A DNA stretch of 64,000 nucleotides from Flectonema sp. DT1601. Its lineage: Eukaryota. The stretch covers positions 1 through 64,000 of the forward strand of contig OZ025782.1 of assembly GCA_964019425.1 (NCBI GenBank), written 5' to 3'. The translations under genes and the position numbers were made by a program. This document shows positions 1 through 60,277 of the stretch, in pieces. Each line of letters opens with the position of its first letter. The first letter of the stretch is position 1. Under the pieces are notes generated by a model. It made no database searches, was not told the DNA's origin, and worked only from the letters and a program-made list of their open reading frames with translations.

Positions 1-1156
1 ACTGCAACGACAAACCCAACAATACCACCCGTCAATTTGAGAAGCATACTGGACACTGCAGAATGATCAACCACAGCTGGATTTTGGGTATCTCCTTCCA
101 CTAATTTTAGATATTTCTCGCATTCCTCCTGGGGTGCAATCAGCTCATCAACTGTAATTCTAGTAGATACATCAGCAAGGCTCATAGAAGCCGTCTCAAC
201 CCACGCATGGGTCTGACATGCCAATTCTTCATCCTCCCGAATACAGCACTTGAATTTATGACACTTTGCGCATAGAAAGCTCTCAGTAGCAGTACATGCT
301 GGACAACGTAGTTGATAACAACTTACCCCAAGACAAATGACACTCTTCATCTTATTTTCAACCAGAGCATCGCGGAGTTTTATCATCCCATTGATAGACA
401 TTCGTTGTGCCTCGTCGATGACCAGGAAGTCAGGTGGTTTGTCAAGAATACTTAGGTCATCGTTCAGTTTACATGAGTAGCGCTTGTATCCATTTTCCTG
501 TTCGAGGATAAGGGAGAGACATGTCTTGCCACAACCAGGTGGTGCTTCAACCCACTTCAACATCTTATCACTTTCTGCCATCAGGTTTCTCCTCAAGTTT
601 ACCAGCGGAAGGGCGGTGCTACCGAGGCAGCCAAGTCCATTGGGAAATCCGTGCCATTCATCGAAGTGGACTATGTAATCTGATCCAGTTCTTTCAACTT
701 CCTGTGATTGTTAGTTTCTATATAAGGCTTATTTTTGAATGAATGAAACTTACGAGGATAATAAATTGTTGGGGAAATATGAAAATCCCTTAGTTGCTTA
801 TTTATGGATTTAGATTTAAGGTATGCAGTGGTGCTTGGTTCCATCTCAGAAAAGGAACATACCCGTTCACTTGCATCTGGGATCTTCTTCCGATAGTCCA
901 CCTTCTCCTCCTCCAATCTCCTGATACGCAGTTTCAGATAGGTCTCTTGATTCTCCAGCAACTTGTACTCTTTTGTTTCCGTCTCTTCCTCTCTAGCGAG
1001 TTCTAACATCCGAGCCTGCAGGGTACCAAGTTCCTTCTCCTTCTGCTCTATCTTTTGATTGATTTTTTGAATCTCTTCCCAGAAATCAAACTTCGCCTGC
1101 TTCTTGTTATCCTCACCCTCATCATCACCACCCCTTTGGCTCTTCTTCCGCATCAT
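1..1156 (-). CDS. P-loop (AAA-like) NTPase with N-terminal coiled coil; 2 exons, 3'-partial (runs off window start)
   Basis: The 671..1156 ORF splices via a phase-0 GTATGT...CTAAC...CAG intron (702-862) into an open frame reaching position 1. That frame contains Walker A APPGCGKT (~522-545), Walker B FLVIDEAQ (~405-428) and a Cys-rich CPAC-x7-CAKC segment. Confidence 0.75.
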
Positions 1157-1457
1157 GTTCTGTATCTGTATCTAAAAAGGATAAGGGTTAGCAGGTACAA
1201 CTCCGAAAGAAATTCCTCACTATACACACAAAGCGACAAAATACATCGGCGTCACTTGGCACCCCGTTTGTCAACACTCACCCTGCTACAGAAATGTGAT
1301 TATTGTTCATATGTTGCTATATGGGGGGTTAACTGTTTGATTTTGTACGCAAAATACAAATGTATTGTATCATAAACAACATAACGATAATTTAACATTA
1401 GTTCTGAGATACAGTGACTAGGTGTGATGCTTAACTTAGCCTTTTAAAGTAACTATT

Positions 1458-1525
1458 AGGTTTCGAGAGTAATCCATATACCTCTTACCTCTATTCTCTC
1501 ATCATCAGTATGGTGTAGAAGTAAG
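1458..1525 (-). ncRNA. Hammerhead ribozyme-like motif with non-standard strand order
   Basis: Minus strand reads CCAUA-CUGAUGA-U-GAGAG-[AAUAGAGGUAAG]-AGG-UA-UAUGG-[AUUA]-CUCUC-GAAA-CCU. Complete catalytic core; stems I, II and III all Watson-Crick. Confidence 0.6.
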
Positions 1526-1668
1526 TCAATCATCTGTTGTGACTGAAGCATCTTAGTTAGCAAGACTGGGATGTAGTTACTTTGTTATAATGTTTATAAA
1601 AAAAATATATGGCGGGGTGAAACTTTGACAATGTAAAAACAGTAACAACTTTAGATATTAAAGAAAAC

Positions 1669-1690
1669 AGTTAGTTAGTTAGTTAGTTAG
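1669..1690 (-). repeat. (CTAA)5.5 tandem repeat, probable 3' tail of the retrotransposon
   Basis: Plus strand agttagttagttagttagttag at the end of the structured 3' UTR. Short tandem-repeat tails are common in I-group LINEs. Confidence 0.65.
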
Positions 1691-1909
1691 CAAGTCCATC
1701 AGACCACCGAGTATCGGTTAGGTAGACACTCAAAGAGTACCGGGTGGCTCTTCTGAGGGTCCCCAATACTGCGGCAGTAGGAAGAACCTAATCCCGGGGG
1801 ATTATTTTGTTAGTATCAGCACAGGGCATACTAGATCAGGAGACCTAGAAACACTTTGCTTCCACCTTGTCCGGTATACTAGCAGGAAACCACGCAATTA
1901 AGTAAACAA

Positions 1910-1968
<59 letters not shown>

Positions 1969-2095
1969 AGTTCTAATCTGAAACACTAAATAAACTTGAT
2001 ATTATGATGAAAAAAATAAAACAAAATAAAATAATATAAGATAACATAAAATAAAATAGATGAATTTAATAACTCAGTAAACACAGTTGATGATT

Positions 2096-5000
2096 TCAGG
2101 GATTAATTTTGAATAGTATATCTATGTAACTCCGAGTCGGAGGACCTCGCACCTTGTAGTCGAACCACTTCCGTTCTATCCGCTCATAGTTGGCGTAGTG
2201 GATCTTATTGAGCAGATCAGTAAATTGAGTCTTTTCTATACCATTATAGCAGAAAAGCTCAACTGTCCACAGAAAATTGTGTATTTCCTCGATCACCGTG
2301 TGATTGTAGGCATTATCGATGGCTTGTAAGACTTCGAGCTTATCTCGAGAAGTGAGTTTCGGAAGGTTAGAGAATTTAACAAGATGCCTCAATAACCACT
2401 GTCTCGGCAGGGCCGCACGCAGCGGAAAGCTCTGCAGGTAGCTCTCCAGGTCCTTCAGCATTGCAGCTAGTTTCGGCTGATTCTCTGTGGCAAAGAACGT
2501 ATGGTGGTGTTGTCCGTCATTTGTCGGGTCATCGCATTGCGGGATGTCCGGGAAGAATTGCTGCACTATGATCCTCGCGCCATTACATCTCGAGAGAAGG
2601 TGATGTGCGTCTGTGTCGGTGTGATTACAGAATCGACAGTCAGTAAGACCCAAGGCAGGGAGCTTTACCAGTTCGTGATGACCCGTTCTCACTCGGGCTA
2701 TAATAATCTCGTCACTTCTTAAAAGGTCCTGATGGAACTTCTGTACCCTACCAGACGATGTTGCCAAGTTGTGGACGTGTCGCGTATCTCGGGAGCGAAG
2801 CCATGCTTTTCTGACTTGGTTCACAATTGAACATTGAGCCATTCGGTAGTCAAAGGGAACCTCCGTGAGCGGTATCTCAGATGACGCAGCTTTGGAAGCC
2901 AGGCTATCAGCTAACTCATTTCCAATAACACCACAATGAGAAGGTACAAACTGCATCGTAAACGGGCGATTCAGGGTGGAAATCTGGCTGAGAATCTCGT
3001 GGTTGGTGCGCGAATGCTGGCAGAGGTACCCCTTGGCCAAGCTACTCAGCGATGACTGGCTGTCGGATATGATGTGTATCCTGCCGTTCGGTAGTTGTGG
3101 CGAATTATCGCGGACGATATCCAGAGCCGAGATCAAAGCCCTCTGTTCTGCGTTGTAAATCATCAGAGAGGGGTTATAGCGCTGTAGCTTCGTGTAACAT
3201 TTATTTCGGAAAACCAAGACCGCAGCATTCCCACAGTGGTAACACCCATCTTTGTCCTCAAAGTAAGAAGCATCTGTATAAACACGTGCAATCGCAGGTG
3301 GCAAGGATTCGATTGATGCAAGGGCATAATTTAGGTTGTGCTCTGTGTCTGGTGACTTACGAAAGTCCCTTGAAGGCAGAACCGTGACGTTTGGAGGAGG
3401 TTCCCAAGGAGCCTGATGGTGAGGCAGGTAGAATCTGGACTTGACACTGGGCGTCGGGAAGCATTTCGAGAAGTGGGTTGCTGAGGATTCCCAACGTCCT
3501 TCCTCCCCCTCTCCATTGAAAAGACTCCAGGTCGGAGCATTCTCTGCGTATCGTTGGTAACGTTCGTAGATGAGAGCCATGGATTTAGCCAGGTGTTGTT
3601 TGAATGGTAGGATGTCGGATTCTACTGAAACAGCTTGGACCGAAGCTGATGAAGAGCAACCAGTTAGCTTAAGCATGAGCTTCCTGTGTATGGTTTCTAC
3701 GCGTTTCCATGAGTCTCGGCGGAGATAGGGTGCATATGCTGCAAGTCCGTGGTAAGCTCTCGCTAGTACAAGGCCGTTAACAAGTTGCCTTAGCACTTCA
3801 GTTTTAATTTCGAAAGATGAGATCATCTTCAAGAGACCAATTCCCCGTTTCATAGTGCTAGTCACCTTATTCAGCTGGGGTTCGAATGTCAGTCTATCGT
3901 CAATCAGCACACCCAGGTAGCGAGCATGTTCAACACGGCGAATAGGTATTGCTGTAAAAATGTCAAGCTTCTTCTTGCCAACCCTGCTGCGAAAATCGGT
4001 TCGAGTTGATACGTCTCTCCCATTCACTGTCAAGGGAAAGACGGGACCACTTTCCAAATTTAACTGAGCGCCAGGACCTTCGTCTAATTTGTCCAACAAG
4101 AGCGACGGTTGGGAGAAGGATTCTAGTCTTTTCGTTGATGGTAGGTACAGCCTAGGGAATCTGCAGAGACCCTTGCCGGAGTCAAATCGAGTGCCGATCG
4201 CCAGGAATTCGGTCTTGGCCTGCGACAAACTCATGTTCGAGTCAGAGAGCCAGCTTTCTACCTGTCCAATCGCTTCATTGGCCTTGGTTTCAAGGTCTCC
4301 AATCTTATTGCTGCTCACAAATACTGAGAGGTCATCAGCGTAGAGCAGTTTAATGTCTGCTTTCGTGACAGACTGCGGGAGTGTGTCGACGTACAGCCTG
4401 AAAAGGAGAGGTCCCAGAATACTACCCTGCGGTACCCCCTTATTACAACCAATATCCTTCGAGTATGTTTTTCCATAAAGAAGCCGCGCTGAACGGTTCG
4501 AAAGGAAGTCCACTAACCATCGTACATATGGTTTGGGCAACAGCGGGATAAGTCTTTCTACTAATATACGATGGCTTACGTTGTCGAAAGCTCCGGAGAT
4601 ATCAAAGAAGAGTAATACGCCACATTTTTCGAAGTCTTGTCTGGTTTCCGACGCAGCGTTAGCCAAGATCGCAATATTTTCATCCGTAGTTCTGCCAGGA
4701 ACAAAGCCTGACTGATTGGGGTCTAAGCTCCCCTCCAATAGGTGTTCCAATCGGCGAAGGATAAGAGCTTCAATGAATTTTGCAACAATAGAAGTCATTG
4801 AAATAGGGCGGTACGAAGAAGGTTCTGAGGGGTCTTTTCCATTGCCTTTGAGAAAAGGAATGACGTTTGCCTTTTTGAAACACTCGGGGAGGATACCTCG
4901 TCTTAGAGACCAGTTGGCTATACGAAGGAGTACCAAAATCATTTGCGGTCCCAGATGTAGAAGCATGTTATTCGAGATGGAGTCCGGTCCTGCACTGTTT

Positions 5001-6250
5001 GTTCTCTTGAGGGAACTGAACACAGCCCGGGCTTCTTCCTGCGAGAAAGGACTACACTCCGGAGTTTCATAGTCACCAGGTTTTACCTTTGGAGCTTCTG
5101 GCCTAGTACTGTCAGAGCCGCTTGGGAAGAAACGGCTTATAAGCGACGTCATTGGAGCTCGTGGTGTTGGAAGTGCCGTCTTATCACCCCTGAGTTCCCG
5201 TATTTTTCTGTAGGTCCACGAGAAGCCCTTATCACAACCTTGGGAGGCTACTTGGCTGGGGGATAGAGGAGCTAGGATACGTTCCCTTCCCTTGTGTCGA
5301 GGCTTGCACCACTTGTTGGGTAGCTTGGCGATTGCTACTTTTTCTACCGTATGGACAAAGTTGTTTGAGAGTTTCTTCAAGGATTTTATCTTTAATAGTC
5401 GTGTTGTGTGTGATTCCAATGTATCAGAAAAGGCTGTCCAGTGTGCATCTTGGAACTGATTGAGGAGCCATTTGCGGTGTGGTGGTGAGTTGCTAAAGTT
5501 TGAGAAAGTCGTGATATCGAAGTCCGCTAAGATAGGTGTATGATCCGACATTAGTGCGTCAGGGTCATATTGGCAAACGCTCAGACATTTATGCTGAGGA
5601 GAGTGTAAGACCAGATCGGGGGTTGTACCGTGTTTCGGAATCGTCGGTTTGAGCTGAACTAACTCCAATCCGTTGTCATTTATCCAGTCAAAGACCGTTG
5701 AGCCTGCTGATTTTGTAGGGACTTTCTGTGACCAGGATTCATGATGGGCGTTAAAGTCACCAAAAGCCATGTCACCTAGATCGTATGATGATGGAAGGCG
5801 TGAAACACCGGGTGGAATATATATATTCTTAAAAGTTATGGAACCTATTGTTGAAGCGAGGCTGAATTCCAGCGCCTCAATGTCGGAGGATCCAGATGAT
5901 ACGTCGTTGTTGTGAGAGATCTTTAAACCATTTCTGAAATACGTCAGTAGGCCACCACCCCGGCTCTTGGAGACTGTCTTCCTGTCTCTCCTAATGTACG
6001 AGTACCCATCCATATGTAAAAGATCACTGTTGTTCTTATTCAGCCAGGTCTCCTGCAGGTTTATTATATCAGGGTTTGTTGCGTTAACGATGGACTCTAA
6101 GGCTGCTCTAGTGTTAGTAAGCGACCTTAGATTCCAGGATAAAATTCTCAGAGGACCCGGGTTTTGTTCTATCCCCGATCGGATTAAGAGCTGCCTCGCG
6201 GTGACCGTCAGATGGAAATCCCTGCTGGGATGTGGTTGGGGATGTCGTTG
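2096..6250 (-). CDS. LINE ORF2: 2A-like peptide, AP endonuclease, reverse transcriptase, RNase H, CCHC knuckle
   Basis: The frame is open from the ORF1 stop, upstream of the track ATG at 6013. APE motifs: ILSWN, LQETW, GDFNAHH, SDH. RT motifs: YRPISMTS, DISGAFD, GVPQGSILGP, YADD, YLG. RNase H motifs: VYTDAS, AE, SDSQS, PSHCGVIGNELAD. Knuckle: CRFC-x7-HHLLSRC. Confidence 0.95.
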   Translation of the reverse strand, partial: QRHPQPHPSRDFHLTVTARQLLIRSGIEQNPGPLRILSWNLRSLTNTRAALESIVNATNPDIINLQETWLNKNNSDLLHMDGYSYIRRDRKTVSKSRGGGLLTYFRNGLKISHNNDVSSGSSDIEALEFSLASTIGSITFKNIYIPPGVSRLPSSYDLGDMAFGDFNAHHESWSQKVPTKSAGSTVFDWINDNGLELVQLKPTIPKHGTTPDLVLHSPQHKCLSVCQYDPDALMSDHTPILADFDITTFSNFSNSPPHRKWLLNQFQDAHWTAFSDTLESHTTRLLKIKSLKKLSNNFVHTVEKVAIAKLPNKWCKPRHKGRERILAPLSPSQVASQGCDKGFSWTYRKIRELRGDKTALPTPRAPMTSLISRFFPSGSDSTRPEAPKVKPGDYETPECSPFSQEEARAVFSSLKRTNSAGPDSISNNMLLHLGPQMILVLLRIANWSLRRGILPECFKKANVIPFLKGNGKDPSEPSSYRPISMTSIVAKFIEALILRRLEHLLEGSLDPNQSGFVPGRTTDENIAILANAASETRQDFEKCGVLLFFDISGAFDNVSHRILVERLIPLLPKPYVRWLVDFLSNRSARLLYGKTYSKDIGCNKGVPQGSILGPLLFRLYVDTLPQSVTKADIKLLYADDLSVFVSSNKIGDLETKANEAIGQVESWLSDSNMSLSQAKTEFLAIGTRFDSGKGLCRFPRLYLPSTKRLESFSQPSLLLDKLDEGPGAQLNLESGPVFPLTVNGRDVSTRTDFRSRVGKKKLDIFTAIPIRRVEHARYLGVLIDDRLTFEPQLNKVTSTMKRGIGLLKMISSFEIKTEVLRQLVNGLVLARAYHGLAAYAPYLRRDSWKRVETIHRKLMLKLTGCSSSASVQAVSVESDILPFKQHLAKSMALIYERYQRYAENAPTWSLFNGEGEEGRWESSATHFSKCFPTPSVKSRFYLPHHQAPWEPPPNVTVLPSRDFRKSPDTEHNLNYALASIESLPPAIARVYTDASYFEDKDGCYHCGNAAVLVFRNKCYTKLQRYNPSLMIYNAEQRALISALDIVRDNSPQLPNGRIHIISDSQSSLSSLAKGYLCQHSRTNHEILSQISTLNRPFTMQFVPSHCGVIGNELADSLASKAASSEIPLTEVPFDYRMAQCSIVNQVRKAWLRSRDTRHVHNLATSSGRVQKFHQDLLRSDEIIIARVRTGHHELVKLPALGLTDCRFCNHTDTDAHHLLSRCNGARIIVQQFFPDIPQCDDPTNDGQHHHTFFATENQPKLAAMLKDLESYLQSFPLRAALPRQWLLRHLVKFSNLPKLTSRDKLEVLQAIDNAYNHTVIEEIHNFLWTVELFCYNGIEKTQFTDLLNKIHYANYERIERKWFDYKVRGPPTRSYIDILFKINP
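6152..6193 (-). other. 2A-like (StopGo) peptide QLLIRSGIEQNPG|P
   Basis: In frame directly before the APE start (P-LRILSWN). Matches (D/G)(V/I)ExNPGP as in L1Tc/Ingi 2A-like peptides, with G at the D position. Confidence 0.8.
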
Positions 6251-8249
6251 CTATTGCTTTGACATAGAACTCCGGTGAGGCGTCCTACCCCGTGATCTGC
6301 TGGGGGTATTCGTTCTGTCCCCGTAGGGAGAGAAGGAGTCTTGTAGCTGCTTTGCCACCTCTGATTCCTGTCCCAGGACTGATTTAGACCTGATTCTGTT
6401 CAGCATCGTCTTGTTGGATGCTTTCTTCGGAGGTGCCTTCGTGACTGGTGCTGTTGTGACTTCAGCAGTTGGAGGCTGTGCCGGCTTACCGTGCACCGGA
6501 GGTTTCATGTTCTGAGGTGGCACTTCAGTTGTTTCCGCAAGAGGAGACCCTTCCGGCGATGAGGACTGTTGAAGAACAGTGTGTTCGATCGAGAGTTTCT
6601 GCTCGTGCATTTGGTTAAGCCGAGCTAACAACTCCGATATTCTTCGTGACAGGTTAGCCACTTCGTCGGTGAGTCGGGAGTTCTGTTCCTGCATTTTAAC
6701 TTGCTGTTTCAGAAGATCTTGGATGCGAGCGTCTCTGTCTTCTAATGACGCCTGTGTCCGTGCTGACTGGTCCTTCTGTTGTTGATCTTGACGAGCCATG
6801 AGATCCGAGGCCTGTTCTGTTAAGCCCGTCACTTTGTCGGTTAGGTGGCCGTTCTGGACCTGCATCTGTCGCTGTTGTTTGAGAAGTTCTCCGATTCGAG
6901 TGTCCTTAGCGGAGTCGGATGGGGACGTAGTGTCAGTTGGGGTGCTGTTGTCCGGTGAAGGAGCAGAGTCATCTGGTGAGCTATCATCTATTGTTGAAGT
7001 AGGGAGCGATGGATATTCCGCTTCGTTACGTGGTGGCGGTTCTCGTTTGGACTCTCGGTTTATAGTCAGGAGGCCATGTCCCTTGCAGTGAACGGTGGAG
7101 AAGGTCGGTTCTTCTAGTGATTTCACTACAAAGAAACCTCTGCTACCCTTCTTCCTGTGGTGAGTCGCTGTGTCTACAATCCAACCCTGTCCACCTAGAA
7201 TCTTGATGAGGTCTGTAGTGCTGATCCTATGGAGAGAGGGACCTGTTATGAAGTAGCGGGTACCCGGTGTTGGAGGAGGCATGGCTAGTTGTCCCAGAGT
7301 CTTACGTGTATCTAGTTCCCTTCCCGGGTAAGTAACTAAACCAAGCTTCTTCGTTCCACGAAGAAGGATGACTGCCGCGTCGCAATAATCTGCAGCCTTG
7401 CGGGCAGTATTTAAGTCTGCTGTGTCCAGTCTGATCACGACTGTTTTCGGTAGGTCTTCTTGTATGTGTCTCGAAGCAGAGATAAAGAAGCCCTTGTGTT
7501 CCGCTGGAACGTGCGCTTGCAGGCGGTGAACTGCATCAGTAGGTATACGAAGGTTCACCGATGACACCTTCGGGGTGCGGACTTTAGATGCCCATATCTG
7601 GTGACGGTCTATGGGAGAGAAAGAGTGGTTCTTCGCAAAGTCGTTGTAGATCTTCAAGGCCGCTGCAGATAGATCCGAGGTTGAGAGTGCTTCGGTCTCA
7701 CCGTGTCCAGAGTGGTAGTTCAGTTGAACCACTCCGTTCGATACAGGATCCCCGCCCGAACGGACTAAAAGTTTGGCTATGGAGCCTGAGATTGTCGTTG
7801 CGTAGGCCTTGCGGACTACCGTCTTACCATCTAAGAGCAAAGGTACTTAAACGGCCTGTGTTGCTTCGTCGTTGGAGTTGTGGTATCTGGTCTGTCGGTA
7901 ACAGAAATACAGCCGAAGCCACTGCAGGGTTGTTGATGACTTCACAGCCATCTTTGACCTTAAGGTCCCAATCCTCATCGCGGAGTTGAGCCTTCCCCCA
8001 CGGTTTTGCTGGTTTTAGTTGTCTGGACACTACTGTTGCCCATGACGAGTTCTTCTTCGTATCTTCAGAACCCGTCTGCCTCGGTGTTTTCGACTTTGGT
8101 CTCGGTGATGGAGCCGTTCTCGGTGGAGCTGCCTTCGGTCTCGACACTGATGGCGGCGGAGGTTGCTTGTTCCTGCCATCTTGCGTGTTAGCTACCATGC
8201 TTAGCAGGGCGCTTAACAAGGTCTTCAACTGGACCCTCTTCTTTTTCAT
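6251..8249 (-). CDS. LINE ORF1 (gag-like, coiled coil), split by a +1 frame break at ~7824-7846
   Basis: ORF 7824..8249 has an ATG. ORF 6251..7840 has no nearby ATG and overlaps it in the +1 frame; it is Pro/Ser-rich with a heptad coiled coil. Confidence 0.75.
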
Positions 8250-11200
8250 TGTTTTTTTGGAGATGTTACTGAGGGGAGACGCACCTTACTGCTCTTTCAC
8301 CGTATTGTTTGGATCGAGATCAATAAAGTACAATAAAGTACAGAAACTGTAGCTTTAGAATCGTTGGTGGGGAAAACAAAATTAATATCAAGTACTTGAC
8401 TGAAAAATATTTGTAGTTGTTAATCAAAGAAAATTACCTTTAGAAAAAAGAGAAAATAAAAAGAAAAAATATAAAGAGACAACTATATTTTTTGTCTTAT
8501 TGGCCGGGAAGTCAGGTCTAATCTTGTCATGCCGCAACCATCGCAGCGTTGTCTTTTCTTCACATATTTATCTTTAGCAAGATCACAGCAACCGATGTCC
8601 CTGCAGCTCGCACTTGAAAATTATCTTCAATCTTCTTCAAAGCAGTAACGTAACATCCACGTTTCAGAATAAGGTTTGCTTCCTTCCACAAGTATTCCGT
8701 CTCTGAAAGGGCCTGTTAAAGGAAATAAGAAATTAATCAACGTAACTCGTTACTCATAAGACATGCGAGGACGTTTTGTGGGATGTCGAGACAACAGTAG
8801 TGAATCCCAGGCGGGAATGTGACCCCGCAAGTATCACAGGCTGGTAATTGAAATTGGCGAATGGGTCAACATCGATGAACAGGAAGTCAGCCCTTGAAAT
8901 TCTCAATATAATCAAATGATAATTGGGAAAGAAAAAAAGAGTAAAAGGTCAAAGGGAAACACAAACAACATAATCTTTTGCAAAGAAGGGTCTTTTTGTT
9001 AGTACGTGTGTTGTTCTGGCTAATGTAATTTGACTTAATGGAAGCGGGAGAAAAAAAGAGAACGAAAAGGGTACGGTTTTGGAAATCTGAGGTTCAGTAC
9101 AGGGAGCACAGCTTTATCCATTGCAGGCACGGGACCGGTCGGTATACTTCAGAAGTGGTGAAAATAAAATAAAATTATGGGGTACGTTGGAAAAACTAAA
9201 GAATTTACACTAAACATTGTCGGGCCACAGTAAAGTCATTTTCCTGACCAACTCACGTAGCGGAAGTAGACGCAATCAGTTCCGTTTATTCTCACGCTGC
9301 TTAAACAGCTAGAAATACACAAGGGGTACAGATGGGTAAAAACACATGAGATGTCCTGTTCAGTTTTACAAGAACAAGTAATACGAGAATTGCCAACTCC
9401 ATTATTCACAGGATCAAGCCTGGAGCTGAAAGGGGGCTGTTTCAGGTACCATACGTTGGATGCATGAAGATCGTCATGTGTTACTATTTCACAATGGTCG
9501 ATAGAATATCACACACAAACCTACCAAAAAAAATAGGGAAAGAAACGAGAAGCCACCAAGAAAAGGAACTCCATAATGTTACTAAGAAACTGTAATAATA
9601 AACTCCACGGCGTGTAAGACCAGCGTCTTTGAAATCGCCACTTCGCCGTAACATGACCAATAGAAAGTGTCGACTTCCGACACAACAGATTTGGACTAAA
9701 TCTGAATCACTTACCTGAACTAATAAAGAACTACAATCATTTTCTTTTATTTTTTTTGAATTATGAAACATAGGCAAGAATAATTCGCGTAGTGTCCACA
9801 AACTCGGACCTGGGCAAGGTCATTTATGTTTGCCAGTCTTTATTAGCTCAAAAAAGAAAAGAAAACACGCACAAGAACGAAGAAACACTCAGACAGTTCC
9901 ATTTGGAACATCTTCTGGCGAGACCTCACCTCAGTCTACAAAACAGTCGCTTCACAATAATCACCAACCCAACTGTACTTTACCGTTTTTGAAAATCGAT
10001 TGAATGAATTTCTTCGATTTCTGTGTTGCCAAATGATGAAGACCACCAGAGGCTTGACTGACGGCAAAGGTCGGCGAGTGAACCAGAAGTATCTGATATT
10101 TAATCTTCCAAAAAAAATCTGAAAAAACAATAATACCACACCAGCATATCACAAGTATATTTTTACTGTATTTATGTGAAATTGCTAAAAGCCGTATCCT
10201 AACATTAAAGCAGGTGAGAGAACACGCAAAAATTCTTTGTTATTATGATTAAGGGAAGACAGTAATATTTTCACTGTCATTCGTACCATCTCTAGGACTT
10301 CTGGAGAGTAGTCGACAGGCATGTCCTGAGAGATAAATCATCAAAACGATCTTCCCCATTAGACACCACAGCTTCACCTTATTCTAAACGAACAAGGTTA
10401 ATAAGTTAAAACAAAGTGAGCAGTGTTCCTCCAGTTGATGAGAACCAAATGATAACCAAAACCTTATATATTCTTTATAACACATGTGCTTACAGTTTTC
10501 AATCATGTAGTGCCGGCAGAGAGCCTTTGTACGTAAAAACAACAGCAAAAAAAAAAAAAGAAAGAAAAAAAAAAAAAACACAGTAGTTCAGCACTCACAA
10601 CTATGAAAAATATTGATTGGAAATGTGTGGCACGTCGTAACAAATTAAAAAGAATAAATAAATTGAAAGATACGAACAGACGTTACGACTGCTGTCGTCG
10701 ATTCCATAAACGGTAATAGGAATGCCAGAGAACTGCTCCACAACGAAAGCAGAGAATGTGTTTAGGCAGAATAATTAATGGAAAGTTCAATCGAGGAAAC
10801 AGCTTCAGGAAAGAAAGACTAACTTACGGTACTTTGTCAAACTGCGTTTAATGCGGAGCTGCGAGAATCTGGTACGGAAACAAACAGAATTCAAAGACAA
10901 CGAAGCTCGTGATTACAACCATGACCATCAAAGCTCCAAGTGATGGTAAATCAGATCTCTTTATCATTGCTGGGGAGTTATCAGAAGAAAAATAATTAAT
11001 AAAATAAAAATAAGAGACACCACAGCATTGAGTCCCTGAAAGGTATTAAGTGACATCAGATACCCAATGTGAATATCCGAGAGGAGACAATTATTGAAGT
11101 CTCGATATTGTCTACGAATGAAATCAAGTTAGGCATCCCTTTCGAGTTGGGAATTGACAGAGAAAGTCGCAGTTTTGCAGTACTACAGAACAAGAGCTTT

Positions 11201-58661: not shown

Positions 58662-59804
58662 CTAAAATAGTGATACCAACATCATCAACAAGGCTATCAC
58701 GTGAATAGGTTGCCATGTGACACCTGAAGAATACTCCGGGACGAGTGTTGGTAACGCTGTGTCAGTATCAGGTGTCAAGGTATCTCCCTGATCACAACCG
58801 TGAGTTGTAAAGGTTGAAAGCGCCACACCCAAATCACGAAGTACAACAGACTGAGCTATTGCAGTGACACAAATACTATCACTCGGTGGAGCACTTGACT
58901 TGTCTAAAGCAGTCACCGTAATGTACATAAATAATGAATATTCTCGATTTGGATCAGAAGACGAGAACTTCCCAGGAATCGCATGATATCCGTTGAAGAC
59001 TTCCTTATCAAGATGTGCATGTGCTGTGTACTTCTCAGGATGTTCTGATGCATAAAAACAGTCGGGAACAGGCCACTGAGAACTCTTGTGAGTGTATTGT
59101 AAGGTGTTGGTATTTACATCAAAGAAAGTAGGATTTATATCTCTACCTGACTCTACTTTGTTTATTAATTCCATTCCCTGAATAGTAATATCAAGTCTCT
59201 GAAAGTACAACTGATCCTTAGTTGTACTTACTTTACATCCGACAGTGTAAATCCCTTTCTCTGTTGATGTTACGTTGTGAATGTCAACAGAAAATCCTTT
59301 TGAGGTCGTTTCGAATGGTAAAGCTGATAATGGATGTACGCAGTTCTCCTGATTAAGACCTCCCAATCGCATTTCAAAGTGGAGGTGAAAAAATCCAGAT
59401 TTGCTAGCACCACATCCCGCGATGACATCACCCTTGTTAACTCTGTCACCATTATTAAAGTTAACAGGATTAATAATATGAAGATACGTACTGTAGACTT
59501 TCTCATCGTTGATGTCGTGAATGAGTTGGTACACACCATCTTGGTAACTAGGGTGGTTTCCATTTATTCTAACTTCTCCGTCAGCAATTGCATATATAGG
59601 ATCACCCTCATTACAAGGTATATCAATCCCACGATGCCAGTCGTATCTGTATCCTTCACTATTCTTCTCTCTTGGACCGAATGTATTTGAGATTGGAGTT
59701 GGGGTGTTTGTTCCAGTTGTTGGCCACACAGCACCTAACTGGTGCAGGTCATCCCAACCACTCATTGCGATTATTACTAACCCACTGTTGAGTATTAACG
59801 ACAT
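58662..59804 (-). CDS. Secreted/surface M23 family zinc metallopeptidase
   Basis: HRGID (HxxxD), YAIADGEV, STYLHI, GDRVNKGDVIA, HLHFE (HxH); hydrophobic N- and C-termini. Confidence 0.88.
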   Translation of the reverse strand: MSLILNSGLVIIAMSGWDDLHQLGAVWPTTGTNTPTPISNTFGPREKNSEGYRYDWHRGIDIPCNEGDPIYAIADGEVRINGNHPSYQDGVYQLIHDINDEKVYSTYLHIINPVNFNNGDRVNKGDVIAGCGASKSGFFHLHFEMRLGGLNQENCVHPLSALPFETTSKGFSVDIHNVTSTEKGIYTVGCKVSTTKDQLYFQRLDITIQGMELINKVESGRDINPTFFDVNTNTLQYTHKSSQWPVPDCFYASEHPEKYTAHAHLDKEVFNGYHAIPGKFSSSDPNREYSLFMYITVTALDKSSAPPSDSICVTAIAQSVVLRDLGVALSTFTTHGCDQGDTLTPDTDTALPTLVPEYSSGVTWQPIHVIALLMMLVSLF

Positions 59805-60277
59805 TCTAATATCTGAGATGAGAAAGAAGTAAGAAATCACTTTATTAAGTTAATAAAAAAAAAACATCACAATGGACAACACACAGGTTAGATTAATTGT
59901 TTTTAAATACTGAAATGAAATAATAATTATTAAAACAAACTCACATAACTGACGCGCCACAACCCACAACAAAGATTGTCTACGTGACTTATGAAAATAA
60001 ATACAAAATTGAGTACAACGTGTTGGAACTTTCAACACAGAAAATAAACGTTTCGAAAAGCAGTGGGCGCAGTTAATAGAGGACGGCTTTAAACGATTTC
60101 TTTAATGTAAAATCGAAATGACAGAACCGAAACTACTGCAATTTGCTTCGATTTAATGAGAAGCTAAAGGAAAGATTACAAAAAGGAAAATATTATGAGC
60201 AAATAATGTTCGCAACGGATAAAAAGATAGACTATGGACCATAATCAACATCAACACCATTAAGTTAACAGCAATCT

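Follow-up and report, generated by a model that had tools for sequence, protein, structure and literature searches.

A type CSG hammerhead ribozyme motif in a probable small repeat unit of a diplonemid genome

The minus strand of the window (the whole 64-kb stretch of DNA analyzed here) contains what looks like a hammerhead ribozyme with its strands in an unusual order. This raises the questions of whether the motif is a genuine ribozyme, to which type it belongs and what kind of genetic unit carries it.

The ribozyme core and its fold

Direct inspection of the sequence revealed a complete hammerhead core on the minus strand at 1513–1458, and every element that the sequence-only reading had listed was found at its coordinates. 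In the nomenclature of Eckert et al. (2023; PMC10085705), who split the hammerhead into three blocks named C, S and G, block C (1496–1513) comprises the 5′ strand of stem I (1513–1509), CUGAUGA (1508–1502), one extra U (1501) and the 5′ strand of stem II (1500–1496). Block S (1474–1483) comprises the stem III strand, U16.1 (1480), A17 (1479) and the 3′ strand of stem I, and block G (1458–1469) the 3′ strand of stem II, GAAA (1464–1461) and the 5′ strand of stem III. Stem I (1513–1509/1478–1474) and stem II (1500–1496/1469–1465) each have 5 Watson–Crick pairs, and stem III (1483–1481/1460–1458) has 3, plus the core U-A pair. A linker of 12 nt separates the 5′ strand of stem II from the stem III strand, and one of 4 nt (1470–1473) joins the 3′ strands of stems I and II. 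As proposed earlier, the GUA triplet predicts cleavage between 1479 and 1478.

The motif contains all that defines a hammerhead core (CUGANGA, GAAA, UH and stems I–III). Its three unbroken blocks follow each other as C, S and G, which is the order of type CSG and not one of the circularly permuted orders of types I, II and III (CGS, GSC and SCG). A scan of the 64 kb for all six block orders, with stems relaxed to 4/4/2 and G-U pairs permitted, returned this single hammerhead, again in the order C-S-G; the non-circular arrangement with pseudoknots that had been read from the sequence is therefore correct. In 3032 dinucleotide shuffles of the 64-kb window (both strands), no hammerhead of any order with Watson–Crick stems of 5/5/3 appeared, while permitting G-U pairs in the same shuffles gave 35 hammerheads across all orders, 1 of them CSG. 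Rfam returned no match at the gathering threshold over the window, nor at E ≤ 5 over 1100–2100.

Pairing scans and nested folding both predict a further helix on the minus strand, hereafter the stem I-II helix, between 1516–1525 and 1484–1493 (10 bp, −10.4 kcal/mol, pair probability 0.91–0.98). Among random 22-mers, 99/20,000 reached 10 bp with the linker. With this helix the motif extends over 1458–1525, and its layout is that of Supplementary Figure 10 in Eckert et al. (2023). In nested folds the 10-bp helix and stem III form with a probability of about 0.9, and neither stem I nor stem II appears, because both cross the other helices. The folding z-scores of the whole domain (−1.0 to −1.6) are unremarkable, which is what one would expect of a domain with pseudoknotted stems I and II. 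Sequence and covariation (see below) together show that, in the predicted fold, the stem I-II helix and stem III nest and two pseudoknots, stems I and II, close across these helices; this would rebuild the usual hammerhead core within one strand. It had been argued that this block order forces either a pseudoknot or a dimer; the pseudoknots are borne out, whereas a dimer need not be invoked, because the published CSG RNAs cleaved during transcription.

Further out, a perfect helix of 10 Watson–Crick pairs (1583–1574/1455–1446, spanning 1446–1583 of the minus strand) is predicted to enclose the ribozyme and to close just after stem III, and a hairpin is predicted at 1546–1526 (minus strand). 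The 7-bp outer helix (1552–1546/1432–1426) that was first thought to close the domain is also predicted as an alternative, but it is displaced by the 10-bp helix when the entire 281-nt unit described below is folded.

Published type CSG and a second, covarying family

The block order had been put forward, as A-C-B, as a candidate new topology. It corresponds to type CSG, which was published and validated by Eckert et al. (2023; PMC10085705), the sole report found in a literature search for "type-CSG". The topology itself is no discovery; what is new is its setting, with a diplonemid host, a covarying second family and a repeat as carrier. The published type consists of two unique soil-metagenome DNA sequences, termed CSG-1 and CSG-2, which both cleave in vitro during transcription (0.004 and 0.026 per min). 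Its authors rate the evidence for biological relevance as weaker for CSG than for the non-circular type SGC. SGC was found in viroid-like RNAs, CSG in DNA only. Another paper (PMC13725137) cites hammerhead permutations with no mention of CSG in its accessible parts.

The window copy resembles CSG-1 and CSG-2 in its C-S-G order, its full set of core nucleotides, its two core pseudoknots and its similar size. They also share a helix in which the strand that precedes stem I pairs with the one that follows stem II, and a short A/U-rich linker from stem I to stem II. The stem sequences are unrelated, and the window copy has an extra U after A9, a longer stem I-II helix, a GUA instead of a GUC triplet and a stem III of 3 pairs plus the core pair, compared with 4 in CSG-1/2. 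CSG-1 and CSG-2 are hostless soil-metagenome DNA, whereas the window copy lies on a diplonemid chromosome. The CSG search descriptor of Eckert et al., which permits the extra U, missed the window copy when we re-implemented it, because it demands at least 4 bp in stem III (3 in the window) and at most 10 nt in the linker (12 in the window); a match was obtained after both limits were relaxed. This descriptor is a search tool and not a definition of type CSG. That Rfam and the published descriptor both miss the window copy indicates why standard searches overlook such RNAs.

The short stem III, the extra nucleotide after A9 and the lack of stems I and II in nested folding might point to a decayed or dimer-dependent relic, inefficient as a monomer, and some vertebrate retrozyme hammerheads do require dimers (PMC7229834). 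We consider this quite improbable, as neither the core nor the stems contain a mismatch, CSG-1 and CSG-2 cut in cis assays, and the extra U is allowed for in the published descriptor. We rather expect, with good confidence, that an RNA with this sequence would cleave itself at the predicted 1479/1478 site.

A pattern scan of metagenomes returned 69 matches, 67 of which were rejected by the pairing test. The remaining two, L160 and L204, show the complete fold in register with the window copy: the first helix strand is followed after 2 nt by stem I (5 bp), the core with one added nucleotide leads to stem II (5 bp), and after another 2 nt come the second helix strand, a short stem III (2 pairs in L160) and a 4-nt linker, as in the window. 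Both were recovered with a pattern built from the window motif, in which the core and three linker bases were fixed and the pairing was free. They are 94% identical and represent one element. Over an alignment base of 2 distinct rows only, 18/18 pairs of the window copy are preserved in L160/L204, 8 of them through changes on both sides, and none is broken; the two stem III pairs included in this count are invariant. Such a level of pairing was reached in 3/500 shuffles, and slid controls paired at 32–47%. In the stem I-II helix, 6 pairs are kept, 2 by double changes; this covariation and its stability uphold the earlier view of the helix as part of a selected fold. Covariation had also been named as one of the checks to make on the ribozyme, and it came out in its favor.

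The silent Rfam search and the weak folding z-scores are what could be said for a chance arrangement. Set against the absence of any match in 3032 shuffles and the covariation with L160/L204, chance is a negligible explanation, and we are nearly certain that the CSG fold in the window is genuine. Type CSG is considerably strengthened by having a copy on a chromosome of an identified eukaryotic lineage, together with a second covarying family.

The 45 differences between L160 and L204 over 1020 nt all lie outside the region around the ribozyme (0 within 562–744), and a 16-bp helix surrounds the ribozyme in both. A large structured domain (z −3.1) lies around it in L160 (551–725) and in L204, with splice-site-like motifs nearby, and in L204 an open frame of 268 codons crosses this domain. 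For the open frame upstream of the L204 ribozyme, we found neither a family nor a longer homologue. Rfam gave one match on L160/L204, which was judged to be chance.

Wider scans added no member. Among the metagenome contigs, those with weak CSG-order matches (L166, L171 and L182) were rejected with helices of ≤4 bp. In viral contigs, the strict pattern gave 0 matches, the relaxed pattern 22, none of which paired, and a narrower pattern 95 (73 new), none of them CSG. A generic pattern, for which 16/64 parts were scanned, gave at least 120 loci (about 530 estimated); 3 of the 120 have CSG order and were dismissed, with stems of 3 bp and helices of ≤3 bp. None of the 10 pattern matches in prokaryote genomes paired, and the CSG fold was absent from all viral and prokaryote matches inspected. 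The contigs of CSG-1 and CSG-2 were not among the scan matches. A covariance model of the three sequences scored high for its training sequences only, and its weak matches in L158, L175, L206 and L215 failed the pairing test. Canonical type I hammerheads were seen in L166 (108–200, inside a 27-nt tandem repeat) and near the contig end in L173 and L180.

The host, the neighboring genes and the repeat unit

The XPD helicase encoded in the window shares 66% identity with its Diplonema papillatum counterpart; among the matches listed, five other proteins reach 64–67% and the rest ≤44%. The long open reading frames are co-oriented on the minus strand, which is also the arrangement of diplonemid gene arrays (PMC10161547). 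Judging from these sequences, the host is a diplonemid and the window is part of its nuclear genome. The gene array also holds, at 58662–59840 (minus strand), a member of the peptidase M23 family, known mainly from bacteria. Bacterial promoter and terminator scans gave nothing informative.

Downstream of the ribozyme lies a euglenozoan gene of the P-loop NTPase family (1–1159, minus strand), probably intron-bearing or broken, with its start about 300 nt away and the ribozyme on the transcribed strand. Among ten of its 23 relatives that we looked up, the two with a species name belong to Entosiphon and Diplonema. Its identification as a viral helicase was discarded, as the viral contigs searched held no relative and the species-named ones are euglenozoan. 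The gene shows apparent GT-AG introns with frames that do not join cleanly. Relatives with 500–850 aa carry a coiled-coil or RRM at the N-terminus and a C-terminus that resembles, by eye (Pfam was blank), a restriction-endonuclease fold.

Upstream of the ribozyme, and outside its element, lies an apparently intact LINE (1670–8371, minus strand) with endonuclease, reverse transcriptase and RNase H, a (CTAA)n tail and a flanking GAAAACA duplication (1663–1669/8372–8378). For comparison we used X1 and X2, public runs from two studies with short contigs at depth 2–8, RNA or DNA unspecified. X1 contigs join 1662 or 1669 to the far-side LINE sequence near 8375–8405 (by eye). Because these contigs bridge both sides, the LINE probably inserted later, into a repeat separate from the ribozyme unit. 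This second repeat (1614–1662 plus about 8372–8405), split by the LINE, is represented by several diverged X1 and X2 contigs; its inverted repeats surround the site of insertion, and it may be favored as a LINE target. Folding of the empty site gave no clear structure. At the LINE end (1671–1700), the tail is a (CTAA)n tandem and not poly(A); a T run of 59 nt lies some 270 nt upstream of it. At the LINE 5′ end (8333–8370, minus strand), a 38-nt stretch is followed by a short repeat of the 3′ end of the LINE. This stretch resembles, as we assume, a euglenozoan spliced leader. Rfam and the available D. papillatum supplements offered no support for this, which, if true, would mean that the LINE was copied from a trans-spliced mRNA.

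The ribozyme itself lies in a repeat unit of 281 bp that folds back on itself (1325–1605, minus strand; inferred boundaries), with a z-score of only −1.6. Its arms (1584–1604/1365–1385, 21 nt, 76% complementary) reach the 5′ end. The unit is flanked by the direct repeats TATATGG at 1318–1324 and 1606–1612, a candidate target duplication; a 7-mer common to both sides occurred in 160/20,000 random windows. TATAT is present at both unit ends, and a T-run at one. In X1 contig 1, too, TATAT is found ahead of the boundary, so TATATGG may mark a target preference or the element end instead of a duplication. There is one unit copy in the 64-kb window and no tandem.

Related units occur in the public runs. 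At least 3 diverged variants overlap 1369–1424 in X2, and X2 contigs 12 and 13 agree with the window at every position of 1424–1486 and 1457–1532, with diverging flanks; in the 30 nt past 1532, 20/30 match (counted by eye). In X1 contig 1 homology is lost at 1323, and in X2 contig 10 at 1324, with different DNA beyond each, and this shared end is seen in three contexts. X2 contig 10 (206 nt, depth 2.5) is a 176-nt loop, as the same 30 bases stand at its start and end. In this one contig, homology breaks off precisely at 1478, the base with which the predicted 3′ product would begin.

These data bear on a role for the ribozyme as a device of the host that would cut the polycistronic pre-mRNA upstream of the NTPase gene, for example uncoupling it from the upstream gene. 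The sequence-only reading had proposed such cutting between the LINE and the NTPase gene. The position fits, on the transcribed strand about 300 nt before the NTPase start, diplonemid genes are co-transcribed in arrays, and the ribozyme stretch is more conserved than its flanks. In those arrays, according to PMC10161547, the genes are already separated by trans-splicing. The X1 and X2 copies end at 1323/1324 and continue into unrelated DNA, so that related units share a boundary but not a neighbor, and the LINE looks like a later insertion into the neighboring repeat. There is no second hammerhead in 64 kb of co-oriented genes, and nothing links the unit to the NTPase gene, which neither X1 nor X2 contigs cover (a weak argument with short contigs). 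We regard a host device as unlikely and the cutting between LINE and NTPase gene as not upheld.

A possible origin from Penelope-like elements

Animal retrozymes are non-coding hammerhead repeats of 170–400 nt (PMC7229834) and have been proposed to stem from the pseudo-LTRs of Penelope elements (bioRxiv 10.64898/2026.07.22.740005). The window unit, non-coding, equipped with a hammerhead and 281 bp long by its inferred boundaries, agrees with this description. It further resembles non-LTR retrozymes in its low GC and self-pairing, and solo monomers exist among them. They differ in having type I hammerheads, usually in tandem, and were described in animals, whereas the window unit is solo within the 64 kb and has a CSG and no type I hammerhead. 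Another likeness is with the HDV-like Pr77 ribozyme of trypanosomatid ingi/L1Tc, a self-cleaving RNA on a euglenozoan retroelement under polycistronic transcription (PMC12278014); Pr77 belongs to another ribozyme class and sits at the 5′ end of the LINE itself, whereas the window motif is outside the LINE.

A closer parallel is provided by Naiads, Penelope-like elements that Craig et al. (2021; PMC8557442) described as having no canonical hammerheads, many of them preferring (TA)n targets. These authors marked eight Naiads as half cores with the second half 35–50 nt away; the corresponding gap in the window copy is 37 nt. In the supplement, we viewed five nematode Naiad records (Naiad_Parc, Naiad-1, -2 and -3_Nbra and, by metadata order, Naiad_Ppac), located in two supplement parts chosen through a motif-search match. 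By eye, all five (5/5) have a complete CSG fold at the 3′ end, as well as the stem I-II helix and a linker of 3–5 nt. Three of them had been marked HHR_core or HHR_half_core by the authors, and CSG was not called in the parts available. Their stems III (5–11 bp) are longer than in the window copy, and what is shared with the window unit is the fold, with no sequence similarity; the window unit has no open reading frame. Marks of a Penelope-like pseudo-LTR would be a position at the end of an RT/GIY-YIG ORF, or homology to such an end, partial tandem copies and a bias to TA-microsatellite targets; what was observed is a window with no such ORF, the 176-nt loop contig and TATAT at both unit ends.

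The unit could also be a genuine CSG hammerhead of a mobile element other than Penelope, such as a SINE-like, LINE-dependent element or an integrated viroid-like circle. Pfam scans found no Penelope reverse transcriptase among 27 window ORFs, an apparently intact LINE adjoins the unit, one unit end has a T-run, and type SGC inhabits viroid-like RNAs. Published CSG, by contrast, comes from DNA only, and no viral-contig match inspected forms the fold. The 3′ end of the unit is unlike the LINE tail except for a 12-nt match inside it, and the CSG fold is found, by eye, at Naiad 3′ ends. We hold this for the less likely explanation by a clear margin in our own judgment, though the most plausible of the alternatives.

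On balance, we favor the account of a self-cutting CSG hammerhead in a diplonemid, carried by a small Penelope-derived repeat of about 281 bp, either a solo pseudo-LTR or a retrozyme-like unit. The unit would be transcribed by read-through within the unidirectional gene array. The nested helices would form first, and the two pseudoknots would then complete the core. A cut at 1479/1478 would free an RNA with a 5′-OH at 1478, setting the 5′ end of the element RNA. A Penelope-like reverse transcriptase might copy this RNA, linear or ligated into a circle, and place the copies at TA-rich sites. At the window locus, such a cut would lie in the spacer RNA that precedes a splice acceptor; as trans-splicing would discard this spacer RNA, the insertion is probably tolerated instead of required. 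An orphan ribozyme type gains a host among eukaryotes, a second family that covaries and, probably, a home in a retroelement.

A broader proposal, to which we give slightly less than an even chance, is that CSG hammerheads are overlooked terminal ribozymes of Naiad-type Penelope-like elements and, at the same time, that a CSG retrozyme family has spread in diplonemids, cutting itself from polycistrons, with copies starting at the cut site. The accessible literature, subscription papers being outside the search, yielded no report of a permuted ribozyme in Naiads, nor any that diplonemids or Euglenozoa have a hammerhead or a Penelope element. The string "euglen" is absent from the main text of PMC8557442, and Penelope is unmentioned in the accessible parts of the D. 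papillatum genome paper (PMC10161547). If true, the proposal would give Euglenozoa a hammerhead-bearing element and a lineage of Penelope not described in the papers searched. According to the published view, Naiads spread with no working hammerhead; a CSG fold at their 3′ ends would overturn this, and what the ribozyme does in Penelope transposition would become testable in a new group. In the octopus Naiad records of File S5 of PMC8557442, the core pieces stand in yet another order.
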